Source: Candidatus Bathyarchaeota archaeon
GTDB lineage: Archaea > Thermoproteota > Bathyarchaeia > Bathyarchaeales > Bathycorpusculaceae
Reading direction: 5' to 3'
Assembly (NCBI GenBank): GCA_963828195.1
Contig: CAWHDT010000009.1
Coordinates: 64,001 to 128,000 of the forward strand
DNA: 64,000 nucleotides
Part shown: one piece after another, positions 17,278 to 58,467 of the stretch
Layout: every line of letters begins with the position of its first letter
How positions within the stretch are numbered: the first letter of the stretch is position 1
Notes under the pieces: generated by a model
Database searches by the model: none
Told to the model about the DNA's origin: nothing
What the model saw: only the letters and a program-made list of their open reading frames with translations
Translations under genes and position numbers: made by a program

Positions 17278-18981
17278 ATGCTTGCTTACGAACTTTATTT
17301 AAAGAATAGAGAAAGCACAGCAGAGTATGTGAAAACAAAAGTCTCGATTAAGAAAGTGTTTGTCAAGGTTGATGATAACGTAACTCTCCAACTGGATTCC
17401 AAAACTTTAGAACACTACGGGGAAAGTTTAAGCCAAAATGATAAGAATTTTTATTTTCAACGGTCGCTTTCTATGCCCTCAAATAACCTTTCATCTGTTG
17501 GTCTTCCTTATAGGGGAACTGGGGCTGCCGCTAAGAAACCGTATGTAGAGTTTTATGGCAACTACAAAAAAGGCAAGTTGACAATCTCTCTTCAAGGTGA
17601 AGCAGGTAAAGATGGCAAACAGAAGTATGAATACCTATTTGACTTCGTAAATGGCAAAGAAGTTGCTATAGTTTCGGTTGATTATCTGGTTTTAAGGCTT
17701 GATAAGAAAAGCTATTTTGTTGGCGATAAGCTGCTTTTTGATTTCTACAAAGAAGCGGGAGTCATTGACGCAGAAGGCGCGTTGTCGTCCAAGGTGTTTC
17801 TTGAAGTTTGCAAAGCCTTCTCTTTGTTATGGAAAGAGAAAATAGTGTATGAAGAGCTCAAGGAGTTCAGCAGTTTTTCTTTTCTTATAGTTTTATTGCC
17901 TTTTTCGCTTATGTCTGATGGAAAAGTTGAGTATCATTGCGAAAAAGCTGCTGACTGCCCCGGCGAAGAGTTTCAGGATTCTTTTGGGAACCCTGCAACC
18001 GGTTATCCCTCAAAAGCGACCATAAATGCCAAGTTTATTTCTTTTGACGATGAAGCTTTCACTATCAATTGCAAAACAGGTAAAGAATTCTACTAGAATC
18101 TAGGTATAGGAGACCAATCTTTTCTTAAGATTAATTTACCCAGCACAATGCAGGGTTTAAACTGGTATTTTTTTGACGTGAACAATCCATTGTTACAATT
18201 TGATGAAAAGCGCTCAGGTATCTATGACCAACTTCTCAGCAACTATCAATTCTTATCCATAGAGGCTGGAAAATCGGCTATTAAGGAATCAGCGATGAAG
18301 ATTATATGCGCTAAAAAGGCGCAGGCCAAGCTTGAGGTATTGCTTGATGAGAATTTGACTTCAGAACAACTGAAGCATATGCTTAGCAGAGCGCAAGATA
18401 ACTTTGCCCGTCATCCAATGGCAATAGAGTCGCTTATAGTAAAAAGAAAAAATGACGTTATATGGACGGACTATATAACCGCAATAAGGCACTTCTTGAA
18501 CGGAACCTTTGTTGACCGCGCCTTTTTGATTCAGCGGTTTACCCTTATCCTTCGGGAAAATCTCCGAGAATGGTTAAAAGGTAACAAGCTGATCAAAAAA
18601 GAAACCGATGACTTTTTCGGTAAATCCCAGTTTTGCTTGAATCTATTAACTAAAAACGAGAGAGGATTAGCTTTGAATAAAAACGAAGAGTATGCATACA
18701 AGGTCGGCGTTATAGCCGGAAAGTACGTGAAGTTTAAACGTGAAAAGAAAGAGGCCAACAATTCAACCAATGACATTTTGACTTATTCCAAGTATGACCG
18801 GGAACGCCTTCGGTTTGTTTATCAGCGGGTCGGCATTGGCGTCTCGCTCTCCAAAGTCAACACCGATGCTATAAGTCAATCAATAAAAAATGAGCTGCCC
18901 AAAGAAGAAATAGATGACACCCAAGCCCATGAAGACTACTCTTACTTCTTCTACAAGGGCGTCTTTGAAAATCTAACTTAA
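17278..18981 (+). pseudogene. cas8b: type I-B large subunit Cas8b interrupted by one in-frame TAG (18094-18096)
   Basis: ORFs 17278..18096 and 18148..18981 share a frame and are separated only by that TAG; first gene of the cas operon; Cas8b-like C-terminus. Confidence 0.7.
18673..18981 (+). CDS. cas11: putative internally translated Cas11b small subunit
   Basis: GAGAGG RBS-like element before in-frame TTG at 18673; AYKVGVIAG...YFFYKGV helical domain; internal Cas11 translation is established for type I-B. Confidence 0.55.
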   Translation: MNKNEEYAYKVGVIAGKYVKFKREKKEANNSTNDILTYSKYDRERLRFVYQRVGIGVSLSKVNTDAISQSIKNELPKEEIDDTQAHEDYSYFFYKGVFENLT

Positions 18982-42968: not shown

Positions 42969-44357
42969 CTAACCCTTGAATGCCATTGGTATTTTTCGCT
43001 TTCTTACCGTAAGCATGATAATAGCGAAAAGTGATAGCACTAAGAGTATAGCTAAAACTTCTATTGTTGGAAACTCTGGAACGGTAGGCGTAGGAGTAGG
43101 GGTTGGGGTTGAGGTAAATGTTGAATTTTGGATAGGCGTCGGAGATGGTGATGCGTTTGTTGTGGATATTGGAGCATTTAGATTAGGCAATGCTTCGGGA
43201 TTAGGTGCAGTTAGGAAGGGAACAAAGTTCACAATTCCTAAAGTAAAGTCATCTTTGAAATCATACATTGTTTGATTAATAGCTTGAACATCGGTTGTTC
43301 CCCACCAATTATTGGATGCGTCAACATTTTTTGATTGACCTTCGTAGCCTGTTATTACCAATTGAATATTAAGAGTGTTGTTTAGGAAGTTATTTTCAAT
43401 TATCGTTGGCTGATAAGCATTTGAAACCCATATTCCCACATTATTATTAGTAATGGTATTATTTTGTATTGTCAAAGTCGTCTGTATAACAGCGACGTTT
43501 GGGGAAAAAATCTGTATTCCATAGCCGTTATCAGAAATGAGATTGTTTTCGATTAGAACATTCCCGATTGGTCCGCCAAACCAGTTAAACCAAATACCGT
43601 CCCGAAAACCGCTTTGATATTCTGCATCAGAGATAACGTTATTTATTATTGTTGCACTACCACTTGCATATGAAATAGACCCGTTTACTATATTGTTATT
43701 CGATAATGAGCAGTTACCGCCATTCATGAGGATGAAGTTCGAGATTGTATTTCCATGAATTAAAGGCGAACCACTCAAGATAGATATTTCTGCACCGCTA
43801 ATTGTGTCATTGCTTATGTTAACAGAAGTGCTTAAGTCTATTTCAGTAAGGTTAACAACCGCATTTTCTATTATAGAACCTGAATTGGTTGCATCATTCC
43901 ATCCTGTACTGGATGGAGAAAATGTGATATATGAATAGTATGCTGGACCTAATTCTGTGACCCCAGCCACGTTACCATTTATTTGTATTGGGTTATTGTT
44001 TGTTCCTATTGCAGACAAAACACCATTAACCAGTATGTAGGCAGATGCATTTCCCATGTTTATTGTTGCACCTTGTTGGATAATAAGTGAACCATTGACC
44101 ATAATGTAATAGCCGTTAAGGTTTAATGTACTTCCCATTCCAATTGTTAGGGCTGTCCCGCTACTTATCAAAATATCTCCTGTAAGGTTGTACGGACTAT
44201 TTGCTTGCGTCCATGTAGTATCAGAAGTGATTATGCCATTGACGGTTGTACCGCTTTGAGCCAATCCTAAAGGTGTAGTTGCGAATATTACGGTCATACT
44301 TGACACGGCTAAGATAAAAACAAGAAGCAATGAGAAACTCTTACTGATAATGCTCAT
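42969..44357 (-). CDS. secreted parallel beta-helix protein with PEF-CTERM-type sorting signal
   Basis: Signal peptide, I.NN.I..N..GI repeats, NNWWG, PT linker, VPEFP-TM-RKRK tail. Confidence 0.9.
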   Translation of the reverse strand: MSIISKSFSLLLVFILAVSSMTVIFATTPLGLAQSGTTVNGIITSDTTWTQANSPYNLTGDILISSGTALTIGMGSTLNLNGYYIMVNGSLIIQQGATINMGNASAYILVNGVLSAIGTNNNPIQINGNVAGVTELGPAYYSYITFSPSSTGWNDATNSGSIIENAVVNLTEIDLSTSVNISNDTISGAEISILSGSPLIHGNTISNFILMNGGNCSLSNNNIVNGSISYASGSATIINNVISDAEYQSGFRDGIWFNWFGGPIGNVLIENNLISDNGYGIQIFSPNVAVIQTTLTIQNNTITNNNVGIWVSNAYQPTIIENNFLNNTLNIQLVITGYEGQSKNVDASNNWWGTTDVQAINQTMYDFKDDFTLGIVNFVPFLTAPNPEALPNLNAPISTTNASPSPTPIQNSTFTSTPTPTPTPTVPEFPTIEVLAILLVLSLFAIIMLTVRKRKIPMAFKG

Positions 44358-44407
44358 ATTTAGCCTTAGAGAAGGTTTGGCGATAAAAGGCTTATCGTAT
44401 ATATTCC

Positions 44408-44450
44408 TTGACTAACAATAGTCAATGTTTCTTGACTAAGAATCGGTCTA
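44408..44450. promoter_or_regulatory. operator-like palindrome TTGACTA-N4-TAGTCAA plus degenerate tandem copy
   Basis: Perfect 7-4-7 at 44408-44425, second copy from 44432, upstream of the beta-helix gene. Confidence 0.55.
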
Positions 44451-44543
44451 ATTCTGCGCTATACAGATTTAAGACTTATTGTATCTTCAAAAAGTCAAAA
44501 AAATAAAAAAGAGAAAAAGATAATGTCCGTAAGTGACTTGCTC

Positions 44544-44625
44544 CTATTTTGGCGGGTTGTTGTCTCGACCTTTTCCAGGATGGGTTGCCCGTTGTGCTTG
44601 GCTTTCCACCCTTCCCGTTACCCAA
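44544..44625 (-). pseudogene. G/P-rich micropeptide with a +1 frameshift
   Basis: GAGGTGA RBS, TTG; removing one base gives MGNGKGGKPSTTGNPSGKGRDNNPPK*. Confidence 0.45.
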
Positions 44626-44799
44626 ATTTTCACCTCAACTCTACGTAGTTTAATTCAGTTTTAAATTTTAGGCTTTTATAGAGGGCAATTCCTAAGTTTC
44701 CGTCGCTCTTTTAAACCGTATTTCATCTGCTTCAGTTGGTTTTCGCTTGATTAAGCGGAGTTAACAGAAGTTGAAGGGTAAATTTACCTAAAGAACGGG

Positions 44800-45171
44800 T
44801 TATTTGAGTTTTGCGTGCTCAGCTTCAAAAGAGGCGTTATAAGTTCTTTTGCCACTAGTGTTTAGTGCGCAGGTGACTTTTCCTTTCAGGGTCACTCCTC
44901 TTAGCCGCCTCAGGTCTTTGGTCATGTCGGGTTCGGTGTCGTCAAACCAGCACATGACGTAGCGGTCAGCGGCGCCTTGGGGCGACGTAAGATAGTCAGC
45001 GTCTCCCATCAACGTGAAAAAATCGACAAGGCTGCCCGTCACTTTAGAGTCGCCGCCTCGGGCAAGCGTAATTTTCTTTGTCTTAACAACCACAAAGGGA
45101 TCCACTTCAGGGTCAACATCTCGCTCCTTAAAAATGCAGACAACCGCTTTATTCCAGACAAACTCGGACAA
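44800..45171 (-). CDS. hypothetical protein
   Basis: GAGG RBS before TTG 45171. Confidence 0.75.
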   Translation of the reverse strand: MSEFVWNKAVVCIFKERDVDPEVDPFVVVKTKKITLARGGDSKVTGSLVDFFTLMGDADYLTSPQGAADRYVMCWFDDTEPDMTKDLRRLRGVTLKGKVTCALNTSGKRTYNASFEAEHAKLK

Positions 45172-45324
45172 AACACATTCCTCAAAAACAACAATAGCTA
45201 AAAGAATTATATAATTATATTGCAACCCGCACATCCCAACGTAATCGTAACCAAAAATTTTCTTCTGCCGCTGGCGATTACGCGCAGTAGCAGTTTTTTT
45301 CAGTCAGTGCGCTGGTCAGACTCT

Positions 45325-45405
45325 ATTAAAAAAGGCGCTCTTACAGCAATCTTCCAACAGGCAGGATTAACACGCGAGGAATTCATAGAATTAACCGAAA
45401 AGTAA
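45325..45405 (+). pseudogene. hicA: HicA toxin C-terminal part
   Basis: IKKGALTAIFQQAGLTREEFIELTEK* is a canonical HicA C-terminus. Confidence 0.8.
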
Positions 45406-45413
45406 TTTGAGGC

Positions 45414-45460
45414 TGGAGCGTTCGGCGGGATTTGGACCCGCGACATTGCCTTACCAAGGT
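45414..45460 (-). repeat. duplicated 3' half of tRNA-Thr (att-like site)
   Basis: Near-identical to 46336-46383. Confidence 0.92.
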
Positions 45461-45534
45461 GTGCATTGTCGGGTGGATGGGAAACTCGGTTTATATCAAA
45501 GCTTATATGGTCAAAAAGATGTTCTCTATCATAA

Positions 45535-45768
45535 GTGGCAGTTATGGTAAAAATCAACGGTAACAAATTCACTGTAATCTTAAGAGAGGAGCCCGACGGT
45601 GGTTATTCAGCGCAATGCTTGGAACTTCCCGGAGCAATCAGCGAAGGATACAACCGCAAGGAAGCGCTTGTCAACATTAAAGAAGCCATCGAAGGGTACC
45701 TCGAAGCTTTCCCCGAAGAGGTTGACCAGCTTAAATGCAAGAAAGAGCTGGTGGAGATAACTGTCTGA
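45535..45768 (+). CDS. hicB: HicB-family antitoxin (short form)
   Basis: EPDGGYSAQCLELPGAISEG..RKEALVNIKEAIEGYLE. Confidence 0.92.
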   Translation: MAVMVKINGNKFTVILREEPDGGYSAQCLELPGAISEGYNRKEALVNIKEAIEGYLEAFPEEVDQLKCKKELVEITV

Positions 45769-45916
45769 AAAGTTGCCGTCTACATCTTGGCGTACGGTAA
45801 TTAAAGCTCTCAGCAAAAAAGGCTTTAGAGTCGCGGGTCAAAGAGGCAGCCACATATTTCTTACTGATGGAAAACATAAACTTACGGTTCCACGGCATAA
45901 CCCTGTTCTTGAATAG
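45761..45916 (+). pseudogene. hicA: HicA toxin N-terminal part, truncated after VPRHNP
   Basis: SEKLPSTSWRTVIKALSKKGFRVAGQRGSHIFLTDGKHKLTVPRHNP. Confidence 0.85.
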
Positions 45917-45959
45917 CCCTCAAAATATCTTCAAGATAGAGCTTGATGTCTCTTGTCAT
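45905..45959 (-). pseudogene. HEPN/DUF86 toxin N-terminal remnant
   Basis: MTRDIKLYLEDILRAIQE overlapping the MNT stop, then truncated. Confidence 0.75.
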
Positions 45960-46255
45960 ACATAGATTGTCTCGTCAAGTATTTTATCCTTGATTCGTGT
46001 TTTAAGAGCGTCTTTTTGAACTAAGTCAACCTTCACCTTTAGTTTTCGACTTAAAAACTGTTTAAGCCCAATAAAATCCACCAAGTCAATGTCATTTGGC
46101 TCAAAAAAAGATACAAGAATATCCAAATCGCTTCTTTCATTTTGACAGCTCTGAGAATATGAACCAAATATGCCTACGGTTTTCACTTGAAACTCCTTTT
46201 CTAGGACTGGCTTAAGTAGCATAAGTTGCCTTTTAAGTTCATCAAGTGTTCTCAT
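45956..46255 (-). CDS. minimal nucleotidyltransferase (MNT antitoxin)
   Basis: IFGSY...SDLDILV...KVDLV. Confidence 0.92.
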   Translation of the reverse strand: MRTLDELKRQLMLLKPVLEKEFQVKTVGIFGSYSQSCQNERSDLDILVSFFEPNDIDLVDFIGLKQFLSRKLKVKVDLVQKDALKTRIKDKILDETIYV

Positions 46256-46335
46256 AGGCGCCTTCCATTTCTTTCTATAATTGAATTAATCTAAAAAAGT
46301 TTGCTAGACAACCAAAACACGACTAAAATATAATT

Positions 46336-46412
46336 TGGAGCCTTCGGCGGGATTTGGACCCGCGACCATTACCTTACCAAGGTAACGCCCCACCGGGCTA
46401 GGCTACGAAGGC
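46336..46412 (-). tRNA. tRNA-Thr(GGT), CCA encoded
   Basis: Cloverleaf GCCTTCG...CGAAGGC-T-CCA; anticodon arm TTACC-TTGGTAA-GGTAA. Confidence 0.96.
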
Positions 46413-46530
46413 AAACAATTTGTTCCCGTGAAAGAACTGCGTCTTGGCAATAAAATGCTTACGGTCGCAGCATCAATGATTTCTAAAAAAGAGTGTGCTA
46501 ATATGAATGGCAATAGTTAATCAAAGTTTA

Positions 46531-47277
46531 TTATTTTAACAATTTTTCTGGAACCATCCTCATGTATTTGTTGACATAGAACATGTCTGGTTCATGTTTG
46601 GTTGCCCTAACTCTAATGTCAAATTTTGGGTCTTGAGGATTAGTACTGTCAAATAGAATCAAACCTATGCCAAATACTAAGCAAAGTGATTCAAGTCTTT
46701 CTTTATCTTCTACGTCTGAAGCGTTGGGTATCACAATGTAAGTTTTATGACTAAAGGATCCATATGCACAAGCTTGACCAAAAGCAGTAATCAGGCCCTG
46801 AGTATCGGTTTTTATTTCAGCAGATACAATAATGATTTGGCGCTGAATTATTTCACCTAATGTAGCTCTTTCAATGCCTATTACGTCGGGTGTTCCCCAT
46901 TTATCACCGAAAGATTTTCCGCCTAATGGTATTGCTGTAGTGCACTCGCCAAGATCATTCTCTAGAAAATCAGCGAATGATGCATAGAAATCAATTTCTC
47001 TAACTGGAACGATATGCAGCTGGCTTTCTGATGTTGCAGTATTTTGTTTTTCCTTAAAAGAAACGTGCCTAAAAAGTCCTCTGCCCGCTTTATAGACCTC
47101 TGAAGGCTTGGTTGAATCAAGATTCCAAATCGTTCCTCGAATGTGGTTTACATTTGCATCGGGCAAACTGTTCTTTATTTGTCTTATTAAATTAGAATAT
47201 CGAACTCCCTCAGGGCTGTTCTTGAGAATTTCAATCGCTTTTTCCTCTATCCGTTCTTTGTAAGTTCGAGTTGGCAT
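46531..47277 (-). CDS. N-terminal HTH plus PD-(D/E)xK nuclease-like protein
   Basis: WGTPDVIG, SAEIK, AFGQACAY..F.HK.Y motifs. Confidence 0.8.
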   Translation of the reverse strand: MPTRTYKERIEEKAIEILKNSPEGVRYSNLIRQIKNSLPDANVNHIRGTIWNLDSTKPSEVYKAGRGLFRHVSFKEKQNTATSESQLHIVPVREIDFYASFADFLENDLGECTTAIPLGGKSFGDKWGTPDVIGIERATLGEIIQRQIIIVSAEIKTDTQGLITAFGQACAYGSFSHKTYIVIPNASDVEDKERLESLCLVFGIGLILFDSTNPQDPKFDIRVRATKHEPDMFYVNKYMRMVPEKLLK

Positions 47278-47373
47278 AGTTATCAAATGAAGACTTTGAA
47301 TTTAAGAACTTATTGCAAGAACTCCTTAACAGATATTAAGGTAAAATCCTTTTATACTAAACCTTAATCGCAT

Positions 47374-47461
47374 GCAGGGGTCTCCAAGCCTGGTCAACGG
47401 AGTAGGGCTTAGGACCCTATCGCGTAGGCGTTCGTGGGTTCAAATCCCACCCCCTGCACCA
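47374..47461 (+). tRNA. tRNA-Leu(TAG), CCA encoded
   Basis: GCAGGGG...CCCCTGC-A-CCA, long variable arm, anticodon arm TAGGG-CTTAGGA-CCCTA. Confidence 0.96.
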
Positions 47462-47763
47462 CTCTAAGTAAAAGTATAGCTTTTTTTGGTATGTTTGCCT
47501 GGTTTTTTGTGATCTATCGTGTTAAATGACAATGAATAAAAAATAAAATTGAGCGTTTTAAGAGAGGAAATGCCCATAGCGATCAAACAACTTAATTGCA
47601 ATAGCGGGTCACATAATAAAAATTGAAAGTAGAATTTTCTAGTTCTTGTTGCAGTAGAGAAGTTGGAATCATAAAGGTAGGCGGTATCGGAGTCTTTTCA
47701 GTGGTTCTGTTAAGCCTCTGTTGCTTGACAGAATTCTTCTCCGTGTGAAAAATCGTCCCCAAA

Positions 47764-47985
47764 CTATATTTCGTTGTAGCGGTTGCAGTTTGGACACTTT
47801 AACACAACATTCTTGAATTTTCCTTCGATGATGTTCTCGCCTAGTTTTGATCCACAATTGCCGCATAGGTAAGTAGTGTTACCACCCTTGCTTTTTATTA
47901 CTGGCAACGTTTTGGATGCAAAAACGGTTCGGTTTCCCTTTTCTGGTTCTGGTATAGTTTTTAATTTTCTGTCCATTTTATCCAC
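47764..47985 (-). CDS. small zinc-ribbon protein
   Basis: YLCGNCG...LKCPNCNRYNEI. Confidence 0.75.
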   Translation of the reverse strand: MDKMDRKLKTIPEPEKGNRTVFASKTLPVIKSKGGNTTYLCGNCGSKLGENIIEGKFKNVVLKCPNCNRYNEI

Positions 47986-48157
47986 TTACTTCGGCTTTTA
48001 TTGGTTTGACTTGGATTATAAGTTTATTGTTTTCTGCTCTTTTCGATTAGCAGTTTCAAATCAATTACACTGATAAAAAAGGGGAATGCGTGATGCCTCC
48101 ACGACTTTAGGGGTTCAAATCCACCCCCTGCACCTTTAAGCACTCGTCAAAACTCTA

Positions 48158-48208
48158 TGTCCTCGTGTCCATGTGCGTCCTTGATGGACATTTGCGGACA
48201 GGCGGGCA
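48158..48208. repeat. 51-bp six-box palindrome, downstream copy
   Basis: TGTCC-3-TGTCC-5-CGTCC-5-GGACA-5-GGACA-3-GGGCA. Confidence 0.85.
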
Positions 48209-48215
48209 ATGTTGT

Positions 48216-49598
48216 CTATACTTGCCGATGGTAACCAAGCATATCTTCTGCCATGTTCTTTAAGCTGGGATCAACAAAATAAATTTTGGTTTTGCCCTTA
48301 CTCTTTATGGCAAGTATGGATCTTTCGTTTAATGCTTTTAGATGCTTTGCAAGAGAGCTTTTCTCGGCTGCCGTTGCTTTACTAAGTGCTTCATCCCTTC
48401 CGTAGGTTTCACCTTTCTGGAAAAGATACATTAGTATCTTGTATTCTGCGTCGCTGGGTTTTAGCATCTTGACATATGACATGCCAGCTTGATCAAGAGT
48501 AATTTTCTTATAAACTGTTGAGTCGAGCTTCCTTATGTCTTGGCTTGGCAAAGCAGATAAGAGCAGGTTGGAAAGCTCGTCCAAGATTAAGCGTATGCGA
48601 CCTTCATATTTTTCGTAGATTTCTGATAGCAACTTCTTATCTGCAAATTTGTAGATGGATATGCTAGGATCAATTGAAGCATCAGAATACATCTGTGATA
48701 AGAAAGCAAGTACATCTTCTTGGCATGGAGCAAGTACTTGTTCATAGTGGAATATGTCGGGATGGATTGGTTTTAGTCCATTTCTCCTTTTCAAAACTAT
48801 AATTACGTGAGCTAAATTTGCGTTCGTATAAAAGACATCTTTCAACAGTGTCATGATTGTTTTCTCGATTTGAGCGTTTTCTAGTTTGTCTACCTCATCT
48901 AGACCGATTACTACGCCGCGATAGCCCATGGTTTGCAAAAGGGCAAATCCTCGTCTCAGCAGATTAACAAAAACTGTATGAGAAAGAGTTTCAGTCCTTG
49001 CAACCAGAACCTGTTCTTGTTCCTCCTTAGTCAAATCCACCTTTATTATCGGAATTCCGACCGTGCTTGACAGACCCTGTGTTTCTATTGTTCCATTTGT
49101 AAATGTAATTTGATCAGAAGCATAAAGAATGGATAGAAAAGAGAGTTCTTCAAGGCTTTTACTTATTGATAATTTCCTTTCAAACAATCTCTTTAAGGTT
49201 CCAAGCATACTCGCATTACGCAAAGCTTCGGTGCTGATGGCAGAACCGAAAGCTCTTAAGAATTCTTGCTCGACGCCTTTAGCATTCTCAACCCCTACAG
49301 GAACTCTGTACTTTATCGTGAAATAGTTATCTTTAGTAAGAATGTTAAGTACCTTATTTAGGAGTGAGGATTTGCCTACTCCTAGATCACCGTGGAGGGC
49401 TACTTTGTAGCTTTTGCTCGTGGAGATTCCCATGTATATTTTTTCAACGATTTCTTTGCGATCTCTAAACAAGCTCTCGTCACGTTTCAGGCTCGCTTTG
49501 TCGATACCCGGTTCAAATAGTTCAAAGACCTGAAATGGGTTTGCTTTCAAATTAAACCGCGAGAGCGCCTTAACACTTGCTTGGTAATCAATGTCCAT
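48216..49598 (-). CDS. AAA+/P-loop ATPase with C-terminal winged-helix domain
   Basis: NPF, F.DR, GDLGVGKS, IGLDEVDK, GRIR, C-terminal wHTH; start likely ATG 49598 or 49616. Confidence 0.88.
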   Translation of the reverse strand: MDIDYQASVKALSRFNLKANPFQVFELFEPGIDKASLKRDESLFRDRKEIVEKIYMGISTSKSYKVALHGDLGVGKSSLLNKVLNILTKDNYFTIKYRVPVGVENAKGVEQEFLRAFGSAISTEALRNASMLGTLKRLFERKLSISKSLEELSFLSILYASDQITFTNGTIETQGLSSTVGIPIIKVDLTKEEQEQVLVARTETLSHTVFVNLLRRGFALLQTMGYRGVVIGLDEVDKLENAQIEKTIMTLLKDVFYTNANLAHVIIVLKRRNGLKPIHPDIFHYEQVLAPCQEDVLAFLSQMYSDASIDPSISIYKFADKKLLSEIYEKYEGRIRLILDELSNLLLSALPSQDIRKLDSTVYKKITLDQAGMSYVKMLKPSDAEYKILMYLFQKGETYGRDEALSKATAAEKSSLAKHLKALNERSILAIKSKGKTKIYFVDPSLKNMAEDMLGYHRQV

Positions 49599-49642
49599 AT
49601 GTCCACACTTGTCCATTATGGACGATACTGGACACGCGGACA
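49592..49642. repeat. 51-bp six-box palindrome, upstream copy between TATA box and start codon
   Basis: TGTCC-3-TGTCC-5-TGTCC-5-GGACG-5-GGACA-3-GGACA. Confidence 0.85.
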
Positions 49643-49929
49643 TATAAGGTTTTTTGAACACAACCAACGCGATTTTCTGTTTCCGAGAGTTCTTCGTGTT
49701 TTTCCAGATGAAACAATCCCAATAAAAAAGGAAGAAAGCTGCAGAAAAAACGGTGGCTGGCGATATCGCCAGTTTGTGGGGGGGTTCAAATCCCACCCCT
49801 TGTACCATATGGATTATTTTTGGTTAAACCGAAAGTCGGGTGGCTATCTTGTTAATGGAGAATAATCTGCGGAAGGCTTAAGCCTTAAGCCTCCATCTCT
49901 GTTTACACTAAGCACGGAAAGGTTTTTGC

Positions 49930-50169
49930 ATGGTTCATCGAAGAGTTCGAGGCGGAAAGTTCAAGATAAAGCATGTTGAGAAGCAACCTCCCGTTGAGTT
50001 GGGAGAGGAATTAGATGTGCACATAACCGACGTTTGTCCTAGCGGAGATGGGATGTCAAAAATTAGGGGCTACGTCATAATTGTGCCAAAAGCCAAGCCG
50101 AGAAACCGAGTGAAGATAAAGGTCACGCAAGTCGGCGAAAAAGCGGCAACGGGCGAAATAATCGAGTAA
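49930..50169 (+). CDS. single TRAM-domain protein
   Basis: PPVELGEELDVHI...GDGMSKIRGYVIIVP. Confidence 0.9.
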   Translation: MVHRRVRGGKFKIKHVEKQPPVELGEELDVHITDVCPSGDGMSKIRGYVIIVPKAKPRNRVKIKVTQVGEKAATGEIIE

Positions 50170-50204
50170 TTCTTTTTAATTACTTTGGTGCTAACTATGA
50201 AATT

Positions 50205-51479
50205 CTACAGCATTTGAGCTATGCTCGCGATGAAGAGTATTGTTGTTATTATGATGGTTGCTAATGCTAATGTCAAGGTGGCTTTCCCAAGTTTGTATTT
50301 GCCCATTAAATCCTTGTTTCGGGTGATAATTATCAGAGGTATTAGAATAAACGGCAGCAGGAGCCCATTTAGGTATTGAGTGAAGATCATTACTTGAATT
50401 TGGTTTGGTATGAACGCGAAAATTGCAGAGATAACGAGCGCCAAGACGAATACGAACCTGAATCTTCTCGCCTTAATGCGGCTCTCCAGACCCAAAAATC
50501 CGAAGGCGGAGTAAACGGTGCCCAACCCCACGGTAACCACAGCCAATATTCCAGCGAAAGCAAAGGCAACTGCGAAAACGTCCACCCCTGCTAAACCAAA
50601 TTTGATTCTGAAAGGCGCTGCTATATCGGCGAAGCTAGTTACCGATTTGCCCCCGATGAGCAATGCGGCACTTGCGATTATGACGATAGTGAGAATTGTG
50701 CCCATCAGGATGCTGACAAAGGAATCGACTCTTTCTTTCCGCACGCATTTCCGCTCTTTAGCTAATTCTTCTTTTCTTTCGCATTCGTCTTCTTTCATCA
50801 GGTCTTCAACTCCTTTCTCGTGGTGATGAGCCCACCCTTTTTCGTAAACTAATCCGCTGTGGAGGATGACGTAAGTAGGTGTAATGGAAGCGCCTATTAT
50901 CGCCTCGGCGTAGTAGAAGGAGTTAGCTTTCACTGATGGAACAAGGGAATTGTAAACTATCTGGCCGAAGTTTGCGTGGAGCGAGAAGAGAAAATATAGG
51001 TAGGCTAAGAAGATGGCAGTGACCAGGATCATCAAGATTTTCTCTAATGTGTCGTATGAGGTTAAGAAAACAAGAAAAATATTCAGCAGAATCGATATGG
51101 ATACTGCTATGGGGTAGGCTATGTTGAATAGGAAAGAAAACGCGAGGCTTAGACCAATTATTTCAGCAGTTAGTGTGGCAAGGTTCAGAAACAGCGAGAC
51201 TGCGAATAGCGGAAGTGAATAGCGTGGTCCAAACCTTTGGTGTATATTTTCCGCTAAAGTTTTTCCAGTGACGACGCCTAGCCGGGCACTAATCTCTTGT
51301 ATTCCTATTAGCAAGATACCTGAGTAGAAAGCTGCCCATAACACTGAAAAGCCAACCGCTGCCCCAGCCGCTGTTGCCGCAACGATGCTGGCAGGATCAA
51401 ACAGCTCTACTGAGACGAGGACTGCGGGGCCAAAAACGGAAATTACCGTTAAGACCTGCTTTAGGTTAATCTTTTTCAT
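50205..51479 (-). CDS. NRAMP-family divalent metal transporter (divergent motifs)
   Basis: GPA, DPAS in place of DPGN, QEISARLGVVTGK, IIGASITP. Confidence 0.88.
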   Translation of the reverse strand: MKKINLKQVLTVISVFGPAVLVSVELFDPASIVAATAAGAAVGFSVLWAAFYSGILLIGIQEISARLGVVTGKTLAENIHQRFGPRYSLPLFAVSLFLNLATLTAEIIGLSLAFSFLFNIAYPIAVSISILLNIFLVFLTSYDTLEKILMILVTAIFLAYLYFLFSLHANFGQIVYNSLVPSVKANSFYYAEAIIGASITPTYVILHSGLVYEKGWAHHHEKGVEDLMKEDECERKEELAKERKCVRKERVDSFVSILMGTILTIVIIASAALLIGGKSVTSFADIAAPFRIKFGLAGVDVFAVAFAFAGILAVVTVGLGTVYSAFGFLGLESRIKARRFRFVFVLALVISAIFAFIPNQIQVMIFTQYLNGLLLPFILIPLIIITRNKDLMGKYKLGKATLTLALATIIITTILFIASIAQML

Positions 51480-51851
51480 GTGCCCATTTTCCTTCAGATA
51501 TCAGATGAAGATGCCGAATCAATGTCTAAAATATTTTAAACTTAATTATTAAACATTACAATTAGAGACCAGCCTTCCAAACTTCGACCTTTTCCCATCT
51601 TGCTGGGGGTTCAAAATCCCCCTCCCCCGCAACTAAATTTATGAGAACTTGGAAATTTCTGCAGAAACTGGTGAGTCATTCGCCCTCATTATTTTTATAA
51701 ACAAAAATTGGTGAGTAATAGCGACGGCTGAATCGGAGAGAGATTTCTTCTCAATAGTTTTTTAAGGCGATACGCCATAACGTTCCAATCACTGTAGGCA
51801 TTTACCTATGGTCGGGAGTTAATCACTATCCACGTCAAGGGATGCAAAATC

Positions 51852-52961
51852 ATGAATAAAAAATTGCTAGTAGCCATTTTTGTAACATGTTTTCTTTTTT
51901 CAGTCGTAGTTTTTTCCCAAATAGCCTATTGTCAAAAATCAACACCAAGCTCTACGACACAGCCAACCCCCGCTAAAGCAGGAATACTTGGAAGCACCTC
52001 TGCCTTATTACTTATTGGCGGAATCGTAGCGGTTGTAGCGGTAGTTGTTGTAGTAACTTTTGTTTTCGTTTTTAAGAAGAGGGGGCGTGGAAAGAGTCTA
52101 AATGGTGGAGTTTCCACTGGTGCCTTCGAAGAGCGGGTGATAAAAAAATTCAATGGTAAACCAAGTGACCCATCTACGGGCGTAAGCGGGTTTACTGAGG
52201 GAGGTCAACCTCTTTTGATCAAACAATCCGATCCTGTCCGCTTGGCTGATGTAGAAGCTTTTGTCAAAGTGCTAGTAAAAGGAGGAGCACAAAAGGGCAT
52301 AATTGTTGCACCCGATTTTGATGACACAGCTCTGGAGGGAAAAATTACCGCGTCGGAAAATGGAACTGAGCTTCAGCTGCTACGCATAAATGAACTGATG
52401 AATAAGCGTTATGCTAATAGAATTAAAGAGCTTGCTATTTCACAGGTTTCCTTTGAGGCGCCAACTACATATGCAACAGATGACCCAGTGACCAAAACAC
52501 CAACTTTTGTTGAAAGAACGCCAAATGAGCCGCAAAAAGACGGTCTGAAACCTCGTGTCTTCATATCTAACAGCAGCACCCAAGTTTCTGACCAGATAAA
52601 GAAAATGTTGGATTTTCTGCATTATGACTACGTTATGGGCGATAAAGAAGAAACAACTGTGCCAATTTCTGAAAACAAATTCGGGTTGATGCAAGACTGT
52701 GATTGCGCAATAATAAACATCGCTGCCGCTGAACAGGAGCGAAGGTACAGCGGCCTCTACATCCTTAATTCGAACGTAACCTCTGAAATCGACGCGACCT
52801 ATCTGAAATACAATACACAGGTTATTCTGTTGGTTGAGCGAAAAGTAGAGTTGCCTCCAAATCTTAAGGGTCTAAAAAGGATTGAATATGACAGTGATGA
52901 TTTATCTTTCAACGCAGCAATGGATCTCAAGAAGGCATTGGAAGACTTTAAGAAACTATAG
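51852..52961 (+). CDS. membrane-anchored Mrr-like domain fused to a TIR-like domain
   Basis: Signal plus TM; FEE.VI...IKQSD.V...V..F...KGIIVA; then RVFIS...NSNVTSEI...LPPNLKGL. Confidence 0.75.
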   Translation: MNKKLLVAIFVTCFLFSVVVFSQIAYCQKSTPSSTTQPTPAKAGILGSTSALLLIGGIVAVVAVVVVVTFVFVFKKRGRGKSLNGGVSTGAFEERVIKKFNGKPSDPSTGVSGFTEGGQPLLIKQSDPVRLADVEAFVKVLVKGGAQKGIIVAPDFDDTALEGKITASENGTELQLLRINELMNKRYANRIKELAISQVSFEAPTTYATDDPVTKTPTFVERTPNEPQKDGLKPRVFISNSSTQVSDQIKKMLDFLHYDYVMGDKEETTVPISENKFGLMQDCDCAIINIAAAEQERRYSGLYILNSNVTSEIDATYLKYNTQVILLVERKVELPPNLKGLKRIEYDSDDLSFNAAMDLKKALEDFKKL

Positions 52962-53255
52962 TTTTTTCATCCCTCAAATCAAACTAGGTCAAAGGCTCTG
53001 CCGTCCTAAAGGAGTTCAAATCACAACCCTGCATTTTTAGCACTGCGTCGCGAACCATAGCTCTCAGCGAGAAATCGGTCCTAATAATCCTAACAATTGT
53101 ACCACCTTAATGATCCGTGGCGCCTATAACGCGAATCGTTTTTGCCCATAAAAATCACGGATTTCAGTTAGCCAAGTATCAAAATAACCACTAAATAAAA
53201 TAAAATATAAGTCTTCATTTACCTGCAAAGATGAAAGTAGCCTCCCCGTTCTATA

Positions 53256-54284
53256 TCAAAAAGTTGATATGTATTGTTGTCGGCTTGGCCATCTTTCGGG
53301 TATTTTCCTTGTGCTGGCTTCAACTTTTTTTATGCCGCAGGTCCTTGAGATTTGGTCTTGTATGGCGAATGACTGCGCCGTGTCTCTAACCATAGCTGAC
53401 AATTGCAGATCATAATCGCCGCTAGTTTTTGTAATTATAATTACATCAGGTATTTCCGTAAGTGACTCAACAACCGTTTCCGGCAGGGTGTCGGGAGCGG
53501 CAACAGCTATGTTGAAATCAATTATCGACGTGTATCCAATTTTATTTGGGTTTATTTGGATTGAAACCTTTATTGAGCCCTTTTCCCTGAGCTTATGATA
53601 CCTATTTACCACTGTGTCAGTTGACAATTCCAGTTCTTTCGCAATTTTAATAAACGACGCGCGTCCGCCCATCGTAAGCTTTGCCACTATTTGCCTGTCT
53701 AACTCATCAATTGCAATTTCATCGATCAGTGTTCGGATTGGTTTATTTGATTTAAGTTGATTAAGAGTGTTGGTGCCTTTCAAGGCGCCTGTGAAATTTA
53801 GGTTTTCAGGAATATTTCTAACGCCAGTCCAGATGTAAGTTTTTAGTCCTGTAGTGGGAAGTTTTCTCTTAATTATCTGCTTCACATCGTTCAATTCATT
53901 TAAGTCCCTTAAAGTTGCAATTGCCCTCACATTGTAAACACTGTTATACTGGCGGTAGGCACGTATCTCCGTTATTTTCTCTATAAACTCCATAACTTGA
54001 TCTATTTGCTGAGCATCAATACTGATGAGCAGAGTTGCAAGCGCGGCATTTCCGAAATGGCCAAAATTCATCTGAATTGTTGCCCCGTTAATTATGCCTT
54101 TTTTTTCCATTGCCCTGAAACGTTTCCAAACTTTGTTTTCCGAGACTTCGCATTCTCTGGCTATTTCACCAAAACCTACCCGACCATCTTGTAATAGTTT
54201 TTTCAGTATTTTAGAATTAAGCTCATCGATTTTAAACACGTTATTTTCTCTAAGTTCTTCACTTTTTCGGGTTTTGGGATTCAA
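53256..54284 (-). CDS. tandem-duplicated Lrp/AsnC regulator
   Basis: Two IDEL...DGR/GGR HTH plus RAM modules. Confidence 0.92.
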   Translation of the reverse strand: MNPKTRKSEELRENNVFKIDELNSKILKKLLQDGRVGFGEIARECEVSENKVWKRFRAMEKKGIINGATIQMNFGHFGNAALATLLISIDAQQIDQVMEFIEKITEIRAYRQYNSVYNVRAIATLRDLNELNDVKQIIKRKLPTTGLKTYIWTGVRNIPENLNFTGALKGTNTLNQLKSNKPIRTLIDEIAIDELDRQIVAKLTMGGRASFIKIAKELELSTDTVVNRYHKLREKGSIKVSIQINPNKIGYTSIIDFNIAVAAPDTLPETVVESLTEIPDVIIITKTSGDYDLQLSAMVRDTAQSFAIQDQISRTCGIKKVEASTRKIPERWPSRQQYISTF

Positions 54285-55590: not shown

Positions 55591-58467
55591 ATGCAAATTG
55601 TTAAAAACAAAATCGCAGCAATTGTGATTGCTATATTCTTAACACTTTCAATAGGGGCTTCAATAATGCTTATTCCAACTGCTAGTGCACATAACCCTCC
55701 GATTACAATTCCAACCTACGCCTACATATCGGCGTCGCCTAATCCGGTAGGTGTCGGCCAGCAAGTGACCATTTATATGTGGCTTAACCAGGTTTTCGGC
55801 TATTATGCTGCTGCAGGAGCCACAACAACAGCCGACTATGCACAGGTAACAAATAATTACAGATTCCAAAACTACAATCTGACTATCATAGCACCTGACG
55901 GTACAACAAACTCAACGATTTTCAGTTATATTGCTGATCCAACATCAGACCAGTACCTATTATACACCCCAACCCAGACTGGAACATATCAACTCATCTT
56001 TACCTTCCCAGGACAAGCCTACAATCAAACCACCCCAGGCGGTAGCGGCACTTATGACCCAGCTTCAGTGTTGATTGGCGACACTTATGCGCCAAGCTCA
56101 GCAAACACAACGATGACTGTGCAGCAAGCACCAATTCCCGCAGCTACAGGCAGCTCCCCGCTTCCAACACAATACTGGACATATCCAATATACGGTGAGA
56201 ACACCTACTGGTACACGATTTCGTCAAACTGGCTCGGTTCAGGTTCTCCAGTCAGTTCTGCAACGGGCTATGGCGGTCTTTCCTTTGCCACTGCTTACCC
56301 AACATCATCAGCAATCCAAGCGTATCCCGGAGATGCCGTTGGACCACTAACTAGCCATGTTATGTGGACGTATCCAGTTGAAGAAGGCGGAGTTGTCGGA
56401 GGAAACGAATTTACCAGCGGCGGTTCCTATCCAGGCAATCCTCAGGGAGTCGGATACTTTGAAGGATCAGCTTACAACAACCGATATATAAATCCAATAA
56501 TATTGGACGGCAACATATACTACACAGAACCAGTAACATTAACAGGCCCTTCCAGCGGACCAACTGTTTGCCAAAGCCTACAAACAGGACAAATAATTTG
56601 GAGCAGTACACAGATACCCGCGCTATCATTCGGCTACATATACAACGTATGGTCCGTTGACCAACATGGAGTTTATCCAGCAATCTTATTCACAGCCAAC
56701 TTTGCCCGTGCTTTTGACGCATTCACAGGGGATCCACTATTCAACGTAACTGGCGTTCCATCAGGCACAATAGCCCAAGGACCAAGTGGGGAACAGTTAA
56801 GATACGTCCTAACGAACGACGGCACCACCGCCTCACCAGCCTATTATTTAGGCGAGTGGAACTCATCTAGGCTTTGGGAGACAGTTGAGAATCCATGGAG
56901 CCTTGCGGTTGTCGATAACCCAACGCTCTACAACGACTCTACAAGTTCTGGCGCTGCTTTAACCACAGGCCAATCACAGGAGGCAAACGTGACAGAACCT
57001 GCTCTAGGAGCTGTTGCCGGTAACAACAATAACGAACCTGCCACCTCCAATTACGTTGTCTACGGAAACGTCGTAAATGTCAGCAACGCACTATACAGTT
57101 ATGACTGGAACGTTTCGACACCAGCGCTCAACACCATGACCACCGCACCTACAATACTTGCAGCTCTAGCCGGAAACGTGCTGCTTTGCAAGAACGGCAC
57201 TTATCCGGTTGCCACCGCAACAAGCGTTACAGGCGCATTCAGCTCAACCCCCTACACATACTTCGCAGTCAACCTCAACGCAACTAGAGGCCCAATCGGC
57301 GAAATTCTATGGTGGAACACAATTACGCCATCAGGCACCGTGTCAGTCTCATTTGGCGGAGTTAACCCGACAGTTAACGTCTTCGTTGAAGCATACAGAG
57401 AAACCACACAATTTGTCGGATACAGTCTGACAACAGGACAGGAAATATGGGGTCCAACTGCACCTCAAGCAGCCTTTGACTACTACGGCAGCCCAGGAGC
57501 AGGAACAATAGTCAGCCAACTAGCTTACGGGAAACTCTACAGCAGCGCTTTCGCAGGAATACTCTACTGCTATGATTTAACTAATGGAAACCTACTTTGG
57601 ACCTACGGCAACGGCGGCGAAGGTAACAGCACTAACGCAGGCTTAAATACGCCCTACGGCGATTACCCAACCTTCATAAACGCAGTCGGCAACGGAGTAA
57701 TATACACCGTGACTACTGAACACACCATCATCGACCCAATTTACAAGGGCGCACTGGCACGTGCCATCAATGCCACAACCGGAGCAGAAATCTGGACCTT
57801 ATCGGACTACACAGGCGAATTCACACAAACAAGTTATGCCATTGCTAATGGGTATGCAACATTCTTCAACGGCTACGATGACCAAGTTTACAGTGTGGGC
57901 CAAGGACCAAGCGCAACCACGGTAACAGCGCCACAGACTGCTGTCACAGCAGGCGCTAATGTAGTTATCCAGGGTACAGTGATGGATATTTCAGCGGGCA
58001 CACAGCAAACACAGCAGAAAGCGGACTTTCCAAACGGCGTTCCGTGCGCATCTGACGCAAGCATGAGCGCTTGGATGAGCTACGTATATCAGCAACAACC
58101 AATGCCAACCAACTTCACCGGCGTTACAGTTTCAATAGACGCAACTGACCCTAACGGCAACTTTGTCCACCTCGGCGACGCTACAACCGACGCTAAAGGC
58201 TTATTCACTTTCACTTGGACACCTCCAAGCGTTCCAGGCAGCTACCTAGTCACAGCAACATTCGCTGGCACCAACGGCTACTGGGGCTCAAGCGCAGAAA
58301 CCGGCATGACCGTACAAAACGCAGCAGCAACACCTGCACCGACAGCGACACCTGCATCAAACCTCGCAACATCATCAGAACTAACACTTGGAATCGCAGC
58401 AGCAGTAATCGCTATAATCATCGCAATCGCAATAGTCGGCTTGCTCTTACTAAGAAAAAAGCCATAA
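55591..58467 (+). CDS. large secreted PQQ-like beta-propeller surface protein with TM anchor
   Basis: Signal peptide, CYD..NG..LW and AINATTG.EIW blades, C-terminal Ig-like domain, TM-RKKP. Confidence 0.9.
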   Translation: MQIVKNKIAAIVIAIFLTLSIGASIMLIPTASAHNPPITIPTYAYISASPNPVGVGQQVTIYMWLNQVFGYYAAAGATTTADYAQVTNNYRFQNYNLTIIAPDGTTNSTIFSYIADPTSDQYLLYTPTQTGTYQLIFTFPGQAYNQTTPGGSGTYDPASVLIGDTYAPSSANTTMTVQQAPIPAATGSSPLPTQYWTYPIYGENTYWYTISSNWLGSGSPVSSATGYGGLSFATAYPTSSAIQAYPGDAVGPLTSHVMWTYPVEEGGVVGGNEFTSGGSYPGNPQGVGYFEGSAYNNRYINPIILDGNIYYTEPVTLTGPSSGPTVCQSLQTGQIIWSSTQIPALSFGYIYNVWSVDQHGVYPAILFTANFARAFDAFTGDPLFNVTGVPSGTIAQGPSGEQLRYVLTNDGTTASPAYYLGEWNSSRLWETVENPWSLAVVDNPTLYNDSTSSGAALTTGQSQEANVTEPALGAVAGNNNNEPATSNYVVYGNVVNVSNALYSYDWNVSTPALNTMTTAPTILAALAGNVLLCKNGTYPVATATSVTGAFSSTPYTYFAVNLNATRGPIGEILWWNTITPSGTVSVSFGGVNPTVNVFVEAYRETTQFVGYSLTTGQEIWGPTAPQAAFDYYGSPGAGTIVSQLAYGKLYSSAFAGILYCYDLTNGNLLWTYGNGGEGNSTNAGLNTPYGDYPTFINAVGNGVIYTVTTEHTIIDPIYKGALARAINATTGAEIWTLSDYTGEFTQTSYAIANGYATFFNGYDDQVYSVGQGPSATTVTAPQTAVTAGANVVIQGTVMDISAGTQQTQQKADFPNGVPCASDASMSAWMSYVYQQQPMPTNFTGVTVSIDATDPNGNFVHLGDATTDAKGLFTFTWTPPSVPGSYLVTATFAGTNGYWGSSAETGMTVQNAAATPAPTATPASNLATSSELTLGIAAAVIAIIIAIAIVGLLLLRKKP

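Follow-up and report, generated by a model that had tools for sequence, protein, structure and literature searches.

How does a row of small, gene-sized units come to stand behind one tRNA gene, each unit closed by a copy of the 3′ end of that tRNA and none of them carrying an integrase? The question is raised by a 64,000-nt stretch of contig C9 of a Candidatus Bathyarchaeota genome (G000; 2.83 Mb, 9 contigs, 44% GC), which we call the window and to whose positions all coordinates refer unless another contig or locus is named. Four intervals of 0.65–1.8 kb with intact genes follow a tRNA-Leu(TAG) gene, and the original prediction, made from the letters of this stretch, took them for cassettes captured at the tRNA in an integron-like manner. 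With a probability of about 0.55, we favour tandem accretion, at the T-loop of the tRNA, of small non-autonomous units, which probably descend from elements with an integrase and undergo recombination in trans, an arrangement resembling cis-mobilizable elements (CIMEs) and analogous to integrons. Below, sampled genomes are labelled G and excised loci L, locus L083 being taken from G010 and L070 from contig C122 of G084; the close relatives are soil, bog and palsa metagenome-assembled genomes of Candidatus Bathyarchaeota.

The window contains the tRNA-Leu(TAG) and a divergent tRNA-Thr(GGT), and no third tRNA was found in it by ARAGORN or by Rfam (run at E ≤ 10). Direct copies of the T-arm and acceptor 3′ strand of tRNA-Leu lie at 48110–48135, 49782–49807, 51607–51632 and 53010–53039 (copies 1–4). 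The fourfold recurrence that had been proposed was confirmed, with copies 1, 2 and 4 beyond chance and copy 3 resting mainly on its position. The 24-mer from the tRNA 3′ end, at up to 3 mismatches, matches the tRNA and copy 2 only (0.00 expected), and GTTCAAATCNNNNCCCTGCA is exact in copies 1 and 4 (0.09 expected at ≤2 mismatches, for a pattern picked post hoc). Copy 3, GGGGGTTCAAAATCCCCCTCCCCCGCAAC, has one additional loop base and reaches only E = 1.4 in searches with nhmmer or with R1, a sequence-only covariance model built from 17 junctions (alignment A1), so that on its own it is not established as beyond chance. What supports it is its position: on the left, homologues of the TIR-like cassette that follows copy 3 are bounded by a tRNA or core in G010, G016 and G022 and by a junction in L089. 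As had also been noted, copies 3 and 4 are the most degraded, the former degenerate and the latter worn, and copies 1 and 4 share a tail (48136–48149 and 53035–53049), which in copy 1 reads TTTAAGCACTCGTC directly 3′ of the junction. These two copies have the same core length variant, and their similarity extends past the tRNA-derived part.

The same pattern had been claimed for the tRNA-Thr, and a displaced copy of its 3′ end is indeed present, albeit as a single repeat. A 22-mer from this end, at up to 3 mismatches, matches just two sites, the tRNA and the displaced copy (0.00 expected), and the copy forms the outer boundary of a unit of ∼0.9 kb on the tRNA-Thr side. When the last 32 nt of 46 predicted tRNAs were compared with the genome, 32 fragment sites were found outside tRNAs at E ≤ 0.05. 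Fragments lie 0.8–2 kb downstream of their own tRNA for Ser-GCT, Asn, Ala-CGC, Cys and Ser-CGA, and the tRNA-Leu array is therefore one case of a genome-wide habit. Two further ARAGORN calls in G000, made with introns allowed, are possibly false: a second tRNA-Leu(TAG) with a 951-nt intron (C7:257869–258912) and a tRNA-SeC (C3:100933–101016).

Alignment of the first unit behind the tRNA-Leu (cassette 1) and of the TIR-like cassette with the homologues in relatives revealed a conserved stretch upstream of the core, the arm, with the motif GGGTGAnATCTCCAC. The full junction runs A-run, GGG(G), GCGGGTGAnATCTCCAC, 7–9 nt, T-arm and acceptor, and stands at the tRNA-distal end of many units. In the array the arm is found at copies 1 and 2 and is absent from copies 3 and 4 (R1 and nhmmer). 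Across relatives the arm adjoins acceptor ends of differing tRNAs (Leu-like, Arg(CCT)-like and Pro-like), and hence it belongs to the unit and not to the tRNA. A full-length junction with a Pro-like acceptor end occurs elsewhere in G000 (C1:4970–6829; L039), beside genes for an IS-type DDE transposase (490 aa) and for an isochorismatase. At C3:224190–224945 (L038 16191–16945) a coreless arm stands directly upstream of an N-terminally truncated DUF763 gene, 4 kb from an intact 432-aa Zn-ribbon integrase gene and near tRNA-Leu(AAG) and tRNA-Ala(GGC).

The core comprises the last ∼25 nt of the tRNA-Leu, from the T-loop to CCA, its extent being given by blocks of identity and by a 26-nt duplication in a relative (described below). 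In most junctions the T-stem has a degenerate 5′ strand, while the T-loop, 3′ strand and acceptor match the anchor tRNA; together with the 26-nt duplicated block, this would place the crossover in or just after the T-loop. RNAalifold found no conserved pairs (0 pairs in 17 sequences), the arm-to-core spacing varies by 1–3 nt with a 1-nt indel inside the arm, and none of 88 full-length junctions is crossed on the opposite strand by an open reading frame (ORF) longer than 169 aa (median 56 aa). Taken together, these results identify the junction as a non-coding DNA motif. An RNA gene or tRNA-like structure was likewise ruled out, Rfam recognising the two true tRNAs only.

The distribution of the motif was surveyed with R1 in 81 genomes of the genus and in 141 genomes of the class Bathyarchaeia (76 genera). 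At E ≤ 0.001 all 81 genus genomes have matches, 3–45 each, a count that includes partial matches on true tRNAs; at E ≤ 1e-8, which in practice retains full-length junctions, the motif is present in 41 of the 141 class genomes and 27 of the 76 genera. Unit statistics were drawn from 89 non-redundant loci chosen via cassettes or junctions, a biased sample, and are descriptive and not estimates, a unit being the interval between consecutive same-strand matches no more than 15 kb apart. These loci hold 116 junction or core matches and 58 units with a median size of 1.48 kb (quartiles 0.62 and 3.4 kb), and the arrays are strongly directional, with 58 neighbour pairs on the same strand versus 2 on opposite strands. 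Units of 2 kb or less (37/58) contain little non-coding remainder and in no case an integrase; 27 of the 58 are no longer than 1 kb, all integrase-free. The longest run, in L046, has seven junctions in 13 kb with one or two ORFs per unit and no PF00589 match. The notion of integrase-free, gene-sized units is supported, and in this sample 55 of the 58 units lack an integrase. In L044 (G059:C9), junctions at 2443–2501(+) and 17728–17799(−) surround the tRNA-Thr/tRNA-Leu pair and are oriented contrary to what either tRNA would lead one to expect, which suggests an inversion between attachment (att) sites.

No integrase stands in or near the array of G000. The search for a tyrosine recombinase was extended to the whole genome, in which PF00589 has five matches, none on the contig of the window, and tblastn with 11 integrases of the genus found no trace in 44000–54000 (best E = 0.066). 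The window had been described as free of integrases; at 686–1036(−), ∼46 kb from the array, lies the C-terminal remnant of a tyrosine integrase of the Zn-ribbon family (31–51% identity to integrases of relatives over 45–121 aa). This remnant was missed by the PF00589 search, and neither a tRNA nor a core was seen nearby.

Among the 58 units, three carry an integrase or its remnant. The unit in L042 (8.7 kb) encodes a 458-aa XerA-like tyrosine recombinase and that in L043 (5.4 kb, the third unit behind a tRNA-Leu(CAG)) one of 424 aa; both units are bounded by arm and core, and the two recombinases are 80% identical. In L094, a frameshifted C-terminal stub of a Zn-ribbon-type integrase lies directly beside tRNA-Leu(TAG) and is followed by a P-type ATPase gene, a 318-aa ORF, arm and core, and then cassette 1. 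In G005, a gap of 58 nt separates the end of an intact 456-aa integrase of the same family as this stub from the tRNA-Leu(TAG) 3′ end; no far-end junction of that element was found in L057. The tRNA and the junction are therefore the same for elements with an integrase, and the decay of integrases can be observed directly. Upstream of intact integrase genes, no junction match occurs at E ≤ 1e-3 in eight loci (L061–L068).

Comparison with relatives showed gain or loss and reordering exactly at the repeats, as the original prediction had anticipated. In G001 tRNA-Leu is followed by cassette 1, in G010 by the TIR-like cassette, a core and cassette 1, and in G000 by cassette 1, the AAA cassette, the TRAM and Nramp genes, and the TIR-like cassette. 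G005 has the TIR-like gene on the tRNA-Thr side, and in G022 cassette 1 stands behind tRNA-Arg(CCT). The cassette 1 unit is 82–89% identical at the DNA level in nine relatives, and its non-coding parts show ∼85% conservation in comparisons of species that match at ∼70–75% in their other genes. Its gene is present in 37 other Bathyarchaeota genomes or loci; a junction lies 78–107 nt upstream of the gene in 17 of these, a tRNA or core 115–440 nt past the stop in 17, and both in 11. The search for the same cassette at other sites placed it behind three tRNAs: tRNA-Leu(TAG), adjacent in four loci and further upstream in the array in four more, tRNA-Arg(CCT) in two and tRNA-Leu(CAG) in one. Many pairs of cassette 1 are 93–97% identical without homology in their flanks; in two closely related pairs the flanks are shared along with the cassette.

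The cleanest case of gain or loss is given by L083 and L089, whose identity is 96.3% over the stretch that begins at the core and takes in the TIR-like cassette and cassette 1. Directly behind tRNA-Leu(TAG), L089 contains a further 3.67 kb, with the 26-nt core duplicated at its bounds and the arm at its end. The extra unit consists of a single ORF for a 922-aa PQQ-repeat/Ig-like protein, with no trace of an integrase (all tblastn E > 0.3). Together, the occurrence of cassette 1 behind three tRNAs and this exact, integrase-free indel favour continuing recombination at the level of cassettes. Metagenomic evidence consists of contigs from four soil and bog runs in which the stretch is represented, run X1 holding it best; the contigs are short and of low depth, and parts left uncovered are uninformative. 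Contigs match the tRNA and diverge at 47458–47473 into at least five continuations, and one from X1 follows cassette 2 through the arm and half the core to 49798, inside the core, before passing into a different acceptor end. The diverging contigs are single and low in depth, and other species are possible as their source.

In the tandem accretion that we favour, site-specific recombination by a tyrosine recombinase would stack small units at the 3′ end of tRNA-Leu(TAG), with the crossover falling within the ∼25-nt core. Each integration would rebuild the tRNA from the incoming copy of the core and displace the older 3′ end outward, leaving the newest units nearest the tRNA, and it is by this repeated displacement that the distal copies would have become the most degraded. 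The units would be non-autonomous, carrying cargo in place of an integrase, and at least two of them keep the conserved non-coding arm, putatively a protein-binding arm of the att site, next to the core at their tRNA-distal end. As the same arm and core bound hundreds of units across Bathyarchaeia, a few of them still with an integrase, the small units may be read as CIME-like derivatives that keep both att sites and that integrases acting in trans could excise, insert and reorder. The erosion of autonomous elements, of the kind found in L094, would feed this pool of units.

Several findings weigh against this reading. Copies 3 and 4 are armless and copy 3 is statistically weak, and in 5 of the 37 cassette 1 loci neither core nor tRNA lies within 6 kb. 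The integrases of G000 are 23–29% identical to the L042/L043 type and 29–33% to the type adjacent to tRNA-Leu, and no close homologue of either type from the junction units was found in this genome. Integrase decay is documented at tRNA-Leu(TAG) itself in L094, so that the small units could be immobile end-products. Moreover, the difference between L083 and L089 could be a deletion by recombination between two cores in place of an insertion, and the conservation of cassette 1 could stem from selection on a useful small gene as opposed to recent transfer. Circular or excised forms, and joints at a core other than the loose ends, were not seen in the metagenome contigs, whose shortness and low depth deprive this absence of meaning.

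The main rival holds that the intervals are immobile remnants of larger integrase-bearing elements, which entered at the tRNA and whose integrase and most of whose genes were then deleted, relatives differing by independent integrations and deletions. The decaying integrase of L094, with its cargo, arm and core, and the intact one of G005 58 nt from the tRNA-Leu show what such a history would look like, and the lack of a close integrase homologue in G000 agrees with it. Integrase-less integrated elements of archaea have been ascribed to integrase loss in the accessible text of PMC8371274, a review of archaeal tyrosine recombinases, and outward displacement with scattered remnants is likewise described for the tycheposons of Prochlorococcus (accessible text of bioRxiv 10.1101/2020.12.28.424599). 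Decay alone, however, does not readily explain why cassette 1, at 0.65–0.7 kb, recurs with unchanged boundaries at cores behind three different tRNAs, or why its non-coding parts outdo other genes in conservation. No integrase trace is left in any of the four G000 units or in the 3.67-kb unit of L089, the prevailing units of 2 kb or less have little non-coding remainder, and the indel between genomes that are 96% identical is exact at the core. We regard pure decay as a serious contender, though the less likely one. The earlier contention that the array is not only a set of decayed islands is partly supported, in that units turn over at the cores in relatives; against it stands the decay directly seen at tRNA-Leu(TAG) in L094.

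The junction in relatives often has a small Zn-ribbon ORF beside it, 62 aa long or, in a single-ribbon form, 41 aa; it encodes an IS1/IS1595-type N-terminal Zn-binding domain (NCBIfam 40.8 bits versus a cut-off of 28) and is homologous to the N-terminus of the 380–500-aa integrases of the genus. In 4 of 10 non-redundant loci the distance between the arm and its start is 23–50 nt; in L019, L042, L046 and L055 its stop stands right against the acceptor end of a core, and as a query it has matches in 71 of the 81 genus genomes, the best full-length ones all in frames of 62–200 aa. No such ORF occurs near the G000 junctions. Minimal units of ∼300 bp, consisting of arm, small Zn-ribbon ORF and core and able to repeat in tandem, were noticed at L019 7786–7974, L042 3650–3770, L046 ∼10540–10665 and L018 588–710. 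In the class sample the junction is found in 41 of 141 genomes, a match to the Zn-ribbon query in 19 and both in 11; this association is weak and confounded by kinship, and a tie between the arm and the Zn-ribbon integrase family is not claimed. As a guess, the 62-aa protein might act at the arm as an accessory DNA-binding protein.

A bolder version of tandem accretion, which we put forward tentatively and as a minority view, would see here a class-wide cassette system anchored at tRNAs. Single genes would each carry a ∼75-nt site, composed of the arm and a mimic of T-loop and acceptor, in a role like that of attC, and tyrosine integrases acting in trans would capture, stack and reshuffle them at several tRNAs. 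The IS1-type Zn-ribbon protein encoded next to the arm would then possibly serve as an accessory or directionality factor, and the whole would be an independently evolved archaeal counterpart of the integron, with essential tRNA genes for its platform.

A nested history, in which the block from copy 1 to copy 4 (48110–53049, 4.9 kb, cassettes 2–4) entered whole, appears improbable. Its att site would be the core plus a tRNA trailer of ∼14 nt, copies 2 and 3 would be older internal junctions and cassette 1 would have arrived last. The core length variant and similar tail common to copies 1 and 4 fit this history, and composite tandems moving as one unit are described for CIME–ICE accretions, ICE denoting an integrative and conjugative element (accessible text of PMC5704250). 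The tail, on the other hand, may be a functional tRNA trailer needed from every incoming unit, and cassettes 2–4 were found together in no relative, the AAA gene being limited to 2 of 81 genomes and TIR homologues occurring without it.

In integration of the SSV1 style the integrase gene is split into int(N) and int(C). Applied here, the att core would lie inside such a gene, with the short Zn-ribbon ORF as int(N) and the arm as the start of int(C), a proposal that we judge very improbable. It would account for the ORF ending exactly at the acceptor end of the core in L019, L042 and L046, and the arm, read on its reverse strand, has one open frame. A coding arm and a split integrase are nevertheless contradicted by the arm indels, which are not multiples of three, by the want of any long opposite-strand ORF across the 88 full-length junctions, and by the full-length Zn-ribbon integrases examined, 9 of 9 of which run on past ...RFS without a core. 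The varying arm-to-core spacing, the confinement of the best full-length matches of the short ORF to 62–200-aa frames and the lack of such an ORF in the G000 array point the same way.

Least credible is an origin of the repeats by chance, as T-loop-like motifs, or as debris of tRNA pseudogenes with no relation to recombination: GGTTCAAATCC-like 11-mers (≤1 mismatch) do occur 108 times outside tRNAs in the 2.83-Mb genome, so that copy 3 alone could be chance, but copies 1, 2 and 4 lie far beyond chance and contradict this account for themselves, all copies are on the same strand and at gene boundaries, the arm and core are conserved class-wide, and the indels of relatives fall exactly at the core.

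Among the closest known systems are CIMEs, on which the primary papers, also covering tandem accretion, are said to be Pavlovic 2004 and Bellanger 2011. CIMEs have no integration genes and keep attL and attR, and ICEs, as well as integrative and mobilizable elements, accrete in tandem at the 3′ ends of streptococcal tRNAs (accessible text of PMC5704250). The array shares units that lack integration genes, have both att sites and are stacked at a tRNA 3′ end through a resident att site, and in both cases the integrase of a neighbour or of an incoming element could act on the units, mobilisation being a presumed step here. The units lie between direct repeats of the target tRNA's 3′ part (four tRNA-Leu copies, one tRNA-Thr copy and the duplication in L089), cores flank them on both sides with the arm distal in units 1 and 2, and related autonomous elements with the same att site and an integrase exist (L042, L043, G005 and, in decay, L094). 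In contrast to CIMEs, the host is archaeal and no conjugation context was seen, the units are much smaller (median ∼1.5 kb, many with a single gene) in longer arrays (up to the seven junctions of L046), and a short arm and core is common to the whole class.

Tycheposons integrate successively at one tRNA, newcomers displacing older elements outward and leaving scattered partial tRNAs, and they too combine cargo genes with tyrosine recombinases (accessible text of bioRxiv 10.1101/2020.12.28.424599). As portrayed there, however, they bring their own recombinase and often replication genes, integrase-less pieces being degenerated remnants, whereas integrase-free units dominate in our (biased) sample, which has a conserved arm and an archaeal host; this comparison is one of island architecture. 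The archaeal elements with SSV-type or pNOB8-type integrases also target tRNAs, form tandems by re-use of the site and are in some cases integrase-less (accessible text of PMC6563490 and PMC8371274). Cryptic integrated elements of Thaumarchaeota form arrays in this way, the smallest in the accessible text of PMC6563490 measuring 2.6 kb and having an integrase, as opposed to the 27 of 58 units of ≤1 kb without one here. The attP within an integrase ORF that marks SSV-type elements was not found in the 88 junctions or the nine integrases, and the arm indels speak against it.

With integrons the likeness is functional: arrays of cassettes with one or two genes, a short recombination site for each, insertion next to the anchor and, presumably, a tyrosine recombinase in trans. 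Integrons reported in Archaea are attC-based (accessible text of bioRxiv 10.1101/2022.02.06.479319), whereas the junction has no attC-like fold, its conserved part being the T-arm/acceptor core of a tRNA with a sequence-specific arm. No intI adjoins the array (PF00589 search of the genome and tblastn of 44000–54000, the sole remnant lying 46 kb off), and the anchor is a tRNA T-loop in place of attI. The genes are found on both strands, seemingly with promoters of their own, and not as the mostly promoterless cassettes of one orientation under a common promoter that integrons hold. The integron-like structure of the original prediction therefore has to be given up: the array is integron-like in outcome, fails each structural test and is not an integron.

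Accretion at tRNAs with CIME-like remnants is of a known kind, and the observation itself is real and confirmed. What appears new is the tiny, mostly single-gene, integrase-free units, the long directional arrays, the class-wide arm and core, and comparative evidence of turnover exactly at the core. A literature search, with supplements (e.g. those of PMC6563490 and of the tycheposon paper) outside it, returned no paper on tRNA-bounded cassette arrays or the arm motif in Bathyarchaeia. These are abundant uncultured archaea of soil and sediment whose gene exchange is almost unknown, and the data point to a simple and widespread turnover of single genes, in small units with one short recombination site stacked behind tRNAs. 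Among the cargo are defence-like proteins, toxin–antitoxin genes, transporters for metals and large proteins of the surface. Mobilisation in trans would make the units a cassette system functionally parallel to integrons and built on tRNA T-loops; should they be decay products only, they would still show clearly how islands in archaea are built through accretion and erosion. The arm and core also provide a searchable handle for flexible gene pools in metagenomes and a substrate for finding the recombinase.

Table 1. Features of the tRNA-Thr/tRNA-Leu region of the window, in window coordinates.
Feature	Position	Strand	Evidence
MntA-like nucleotidyltransferase antitoxin gene, 99 aa, in tRNA-Thr-side unit	45956–46255	−	PADLOC PDC-S09 E = 1.7e-24
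Displaced tRNA-Thr(GGT) 3′ end	45414–45444	−	97% identical to 46336–46366 over 31 nt
tRNA-Thr(GGT)	46336–46412	−	ARAGORN; Rfam tRNA 62 bits; divergent from tRNA-Leu
251-aa ORF between the two tRNAs	46531–47286	−	Weak WH_Rok match only
tRNA-Leu(TAG), array anchor (attL side)	47374–47461	+	ARAGORN; Rfam 48.8 bits
Cassette 1 body with 73-aa Zn-ribbon gene 47764–47985(−)	47462–48063		Sub-threshold Pfam Zn-ribbon matches
Junction 1: arm (A-run, GGGG, GCGTGATGCCTCCAC) and copy 1 core 48110–48135	48064–48136	+	R1 E = 2.3e-11 (G000:C9:112064-112136); nhmmer E = 2.9e-11
Cassette 2 body with P-loop NTPase and winged helix-turn-helix (wHTH) gene 48216–49643(−)	48137–49734		AAA_22 28.5 bits, above cut-off
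Junction 2: arm (AAAAAACGGTGG CTGGCGATATCGCCAG) and copy 2 core 49782–49807	49735–49808	+	R1 E = 1.2e-11 (G000:C9:113735-113808)
Interval 3: TRAM gene 49930–50169(+), Nramp transporter gene 50205–51479(−)	49809–51606		TRAM E = 1.4e-9; Nramp E = 1.2e-69
Copy 3, degenerate T-arm/acceptor-like core, armless	51607–51632	+	69% identical to tRNA copy
Cassette 4, 369-aa membrane-anchored protein gene 51852–52961(+), TIR-like C-terminus	51633–53009		Sub-threshold domain matches
Copy 4, degraded core and tail TTTTAGCACTGCGTC, most distal boundary of the array	53010–53049	+	77% identical to copy 1 over 30 nt

The gene content of the array agrees with what had been read from the sequence for the Zn-ribbon, P-loop AAA_22 (with a wHTH-like region), TRAM and Nramp genes, whereas the proposed Mrr–TIR fusion is matched below threshold only. 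For the latter protein, CAP12-PCTIR_TIR gives E = 3e-4 (21.1 bits versus a cut-off of 24.7) and Mrr_cat E = 0.12, and its profile against PDB sequences returned only spurious matches to ribosomal eL21. TIR-like homologues (60–68% aa identity) lie near the tRNA-Leu/Thr pair in four relatives and are core-flanked in several. The Zn-ribbon, AAA and Nramp genes are on the minus strand and the TRAM and TIR-like genes on the plus strand. In interval 3, a single unit is uncertain, since a TRAM homologue in G013 stands without Nramp and without nearby cores.

The longest ORF of cassette 2 extends to 49808, and the C-terminus of its protein is wHTH-like, with Csa3/CARF-HTH-like matches. Two of the 81 genus genomes have the gene (G000 and G084, 75% aa identity); in G084 no junction lies within 1.5 kb of the stop, and the contig begins within the gene. 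Clusters of GGACA/TGTCC repeats flank the gene in the window (48150–48205 and 49590–49660) and also follow this homologue, its only one (L070 ∼1370–1470). They could serve as binding sites for the wHTH domain that the gene itself encodes, or mark an origin-like region next to an Orc/Cdc6-like initiator.

On the tRNA-Thr side, the MntA-like gene matches NCBIfam MntA_antitoxin at E = 5.3e-12, under the cut-off, and a HepT-like partner is not evident in 44800–45900. A 144-aa ORF at 44800–45234 has no family match, and 45300–45900 contains only short overlapping ORFs, possibly a broken gene. Between the tRNAs, the 251-aa ORF has no homologue in the tRNA-Thr/Leu loci of nine relatives. In X1 and X2, contigs pass from 46465, in the upstream region of the tRNA-Thr, straight to 47373 at the start of the tRNA-Leu and omit this ORF; hence the stretch separating the divergent tRNAs varies as well.

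Of 18 window proteins, cassettes aside, only paralogous PQQ-type proteins matched the loci around the tRNA pair in the nine relatives. The PQQ-repeat/Ig-like proteins (∼920–960 aa) form a multi-copy family that recurs as cargo of junction-bounded units and as neighbours of arrays, with copies at 55591–58467 and 60944–63808 of the window, at C1:646–3396 of G000, at L042 4230–6986 and at L089 8343–11111.

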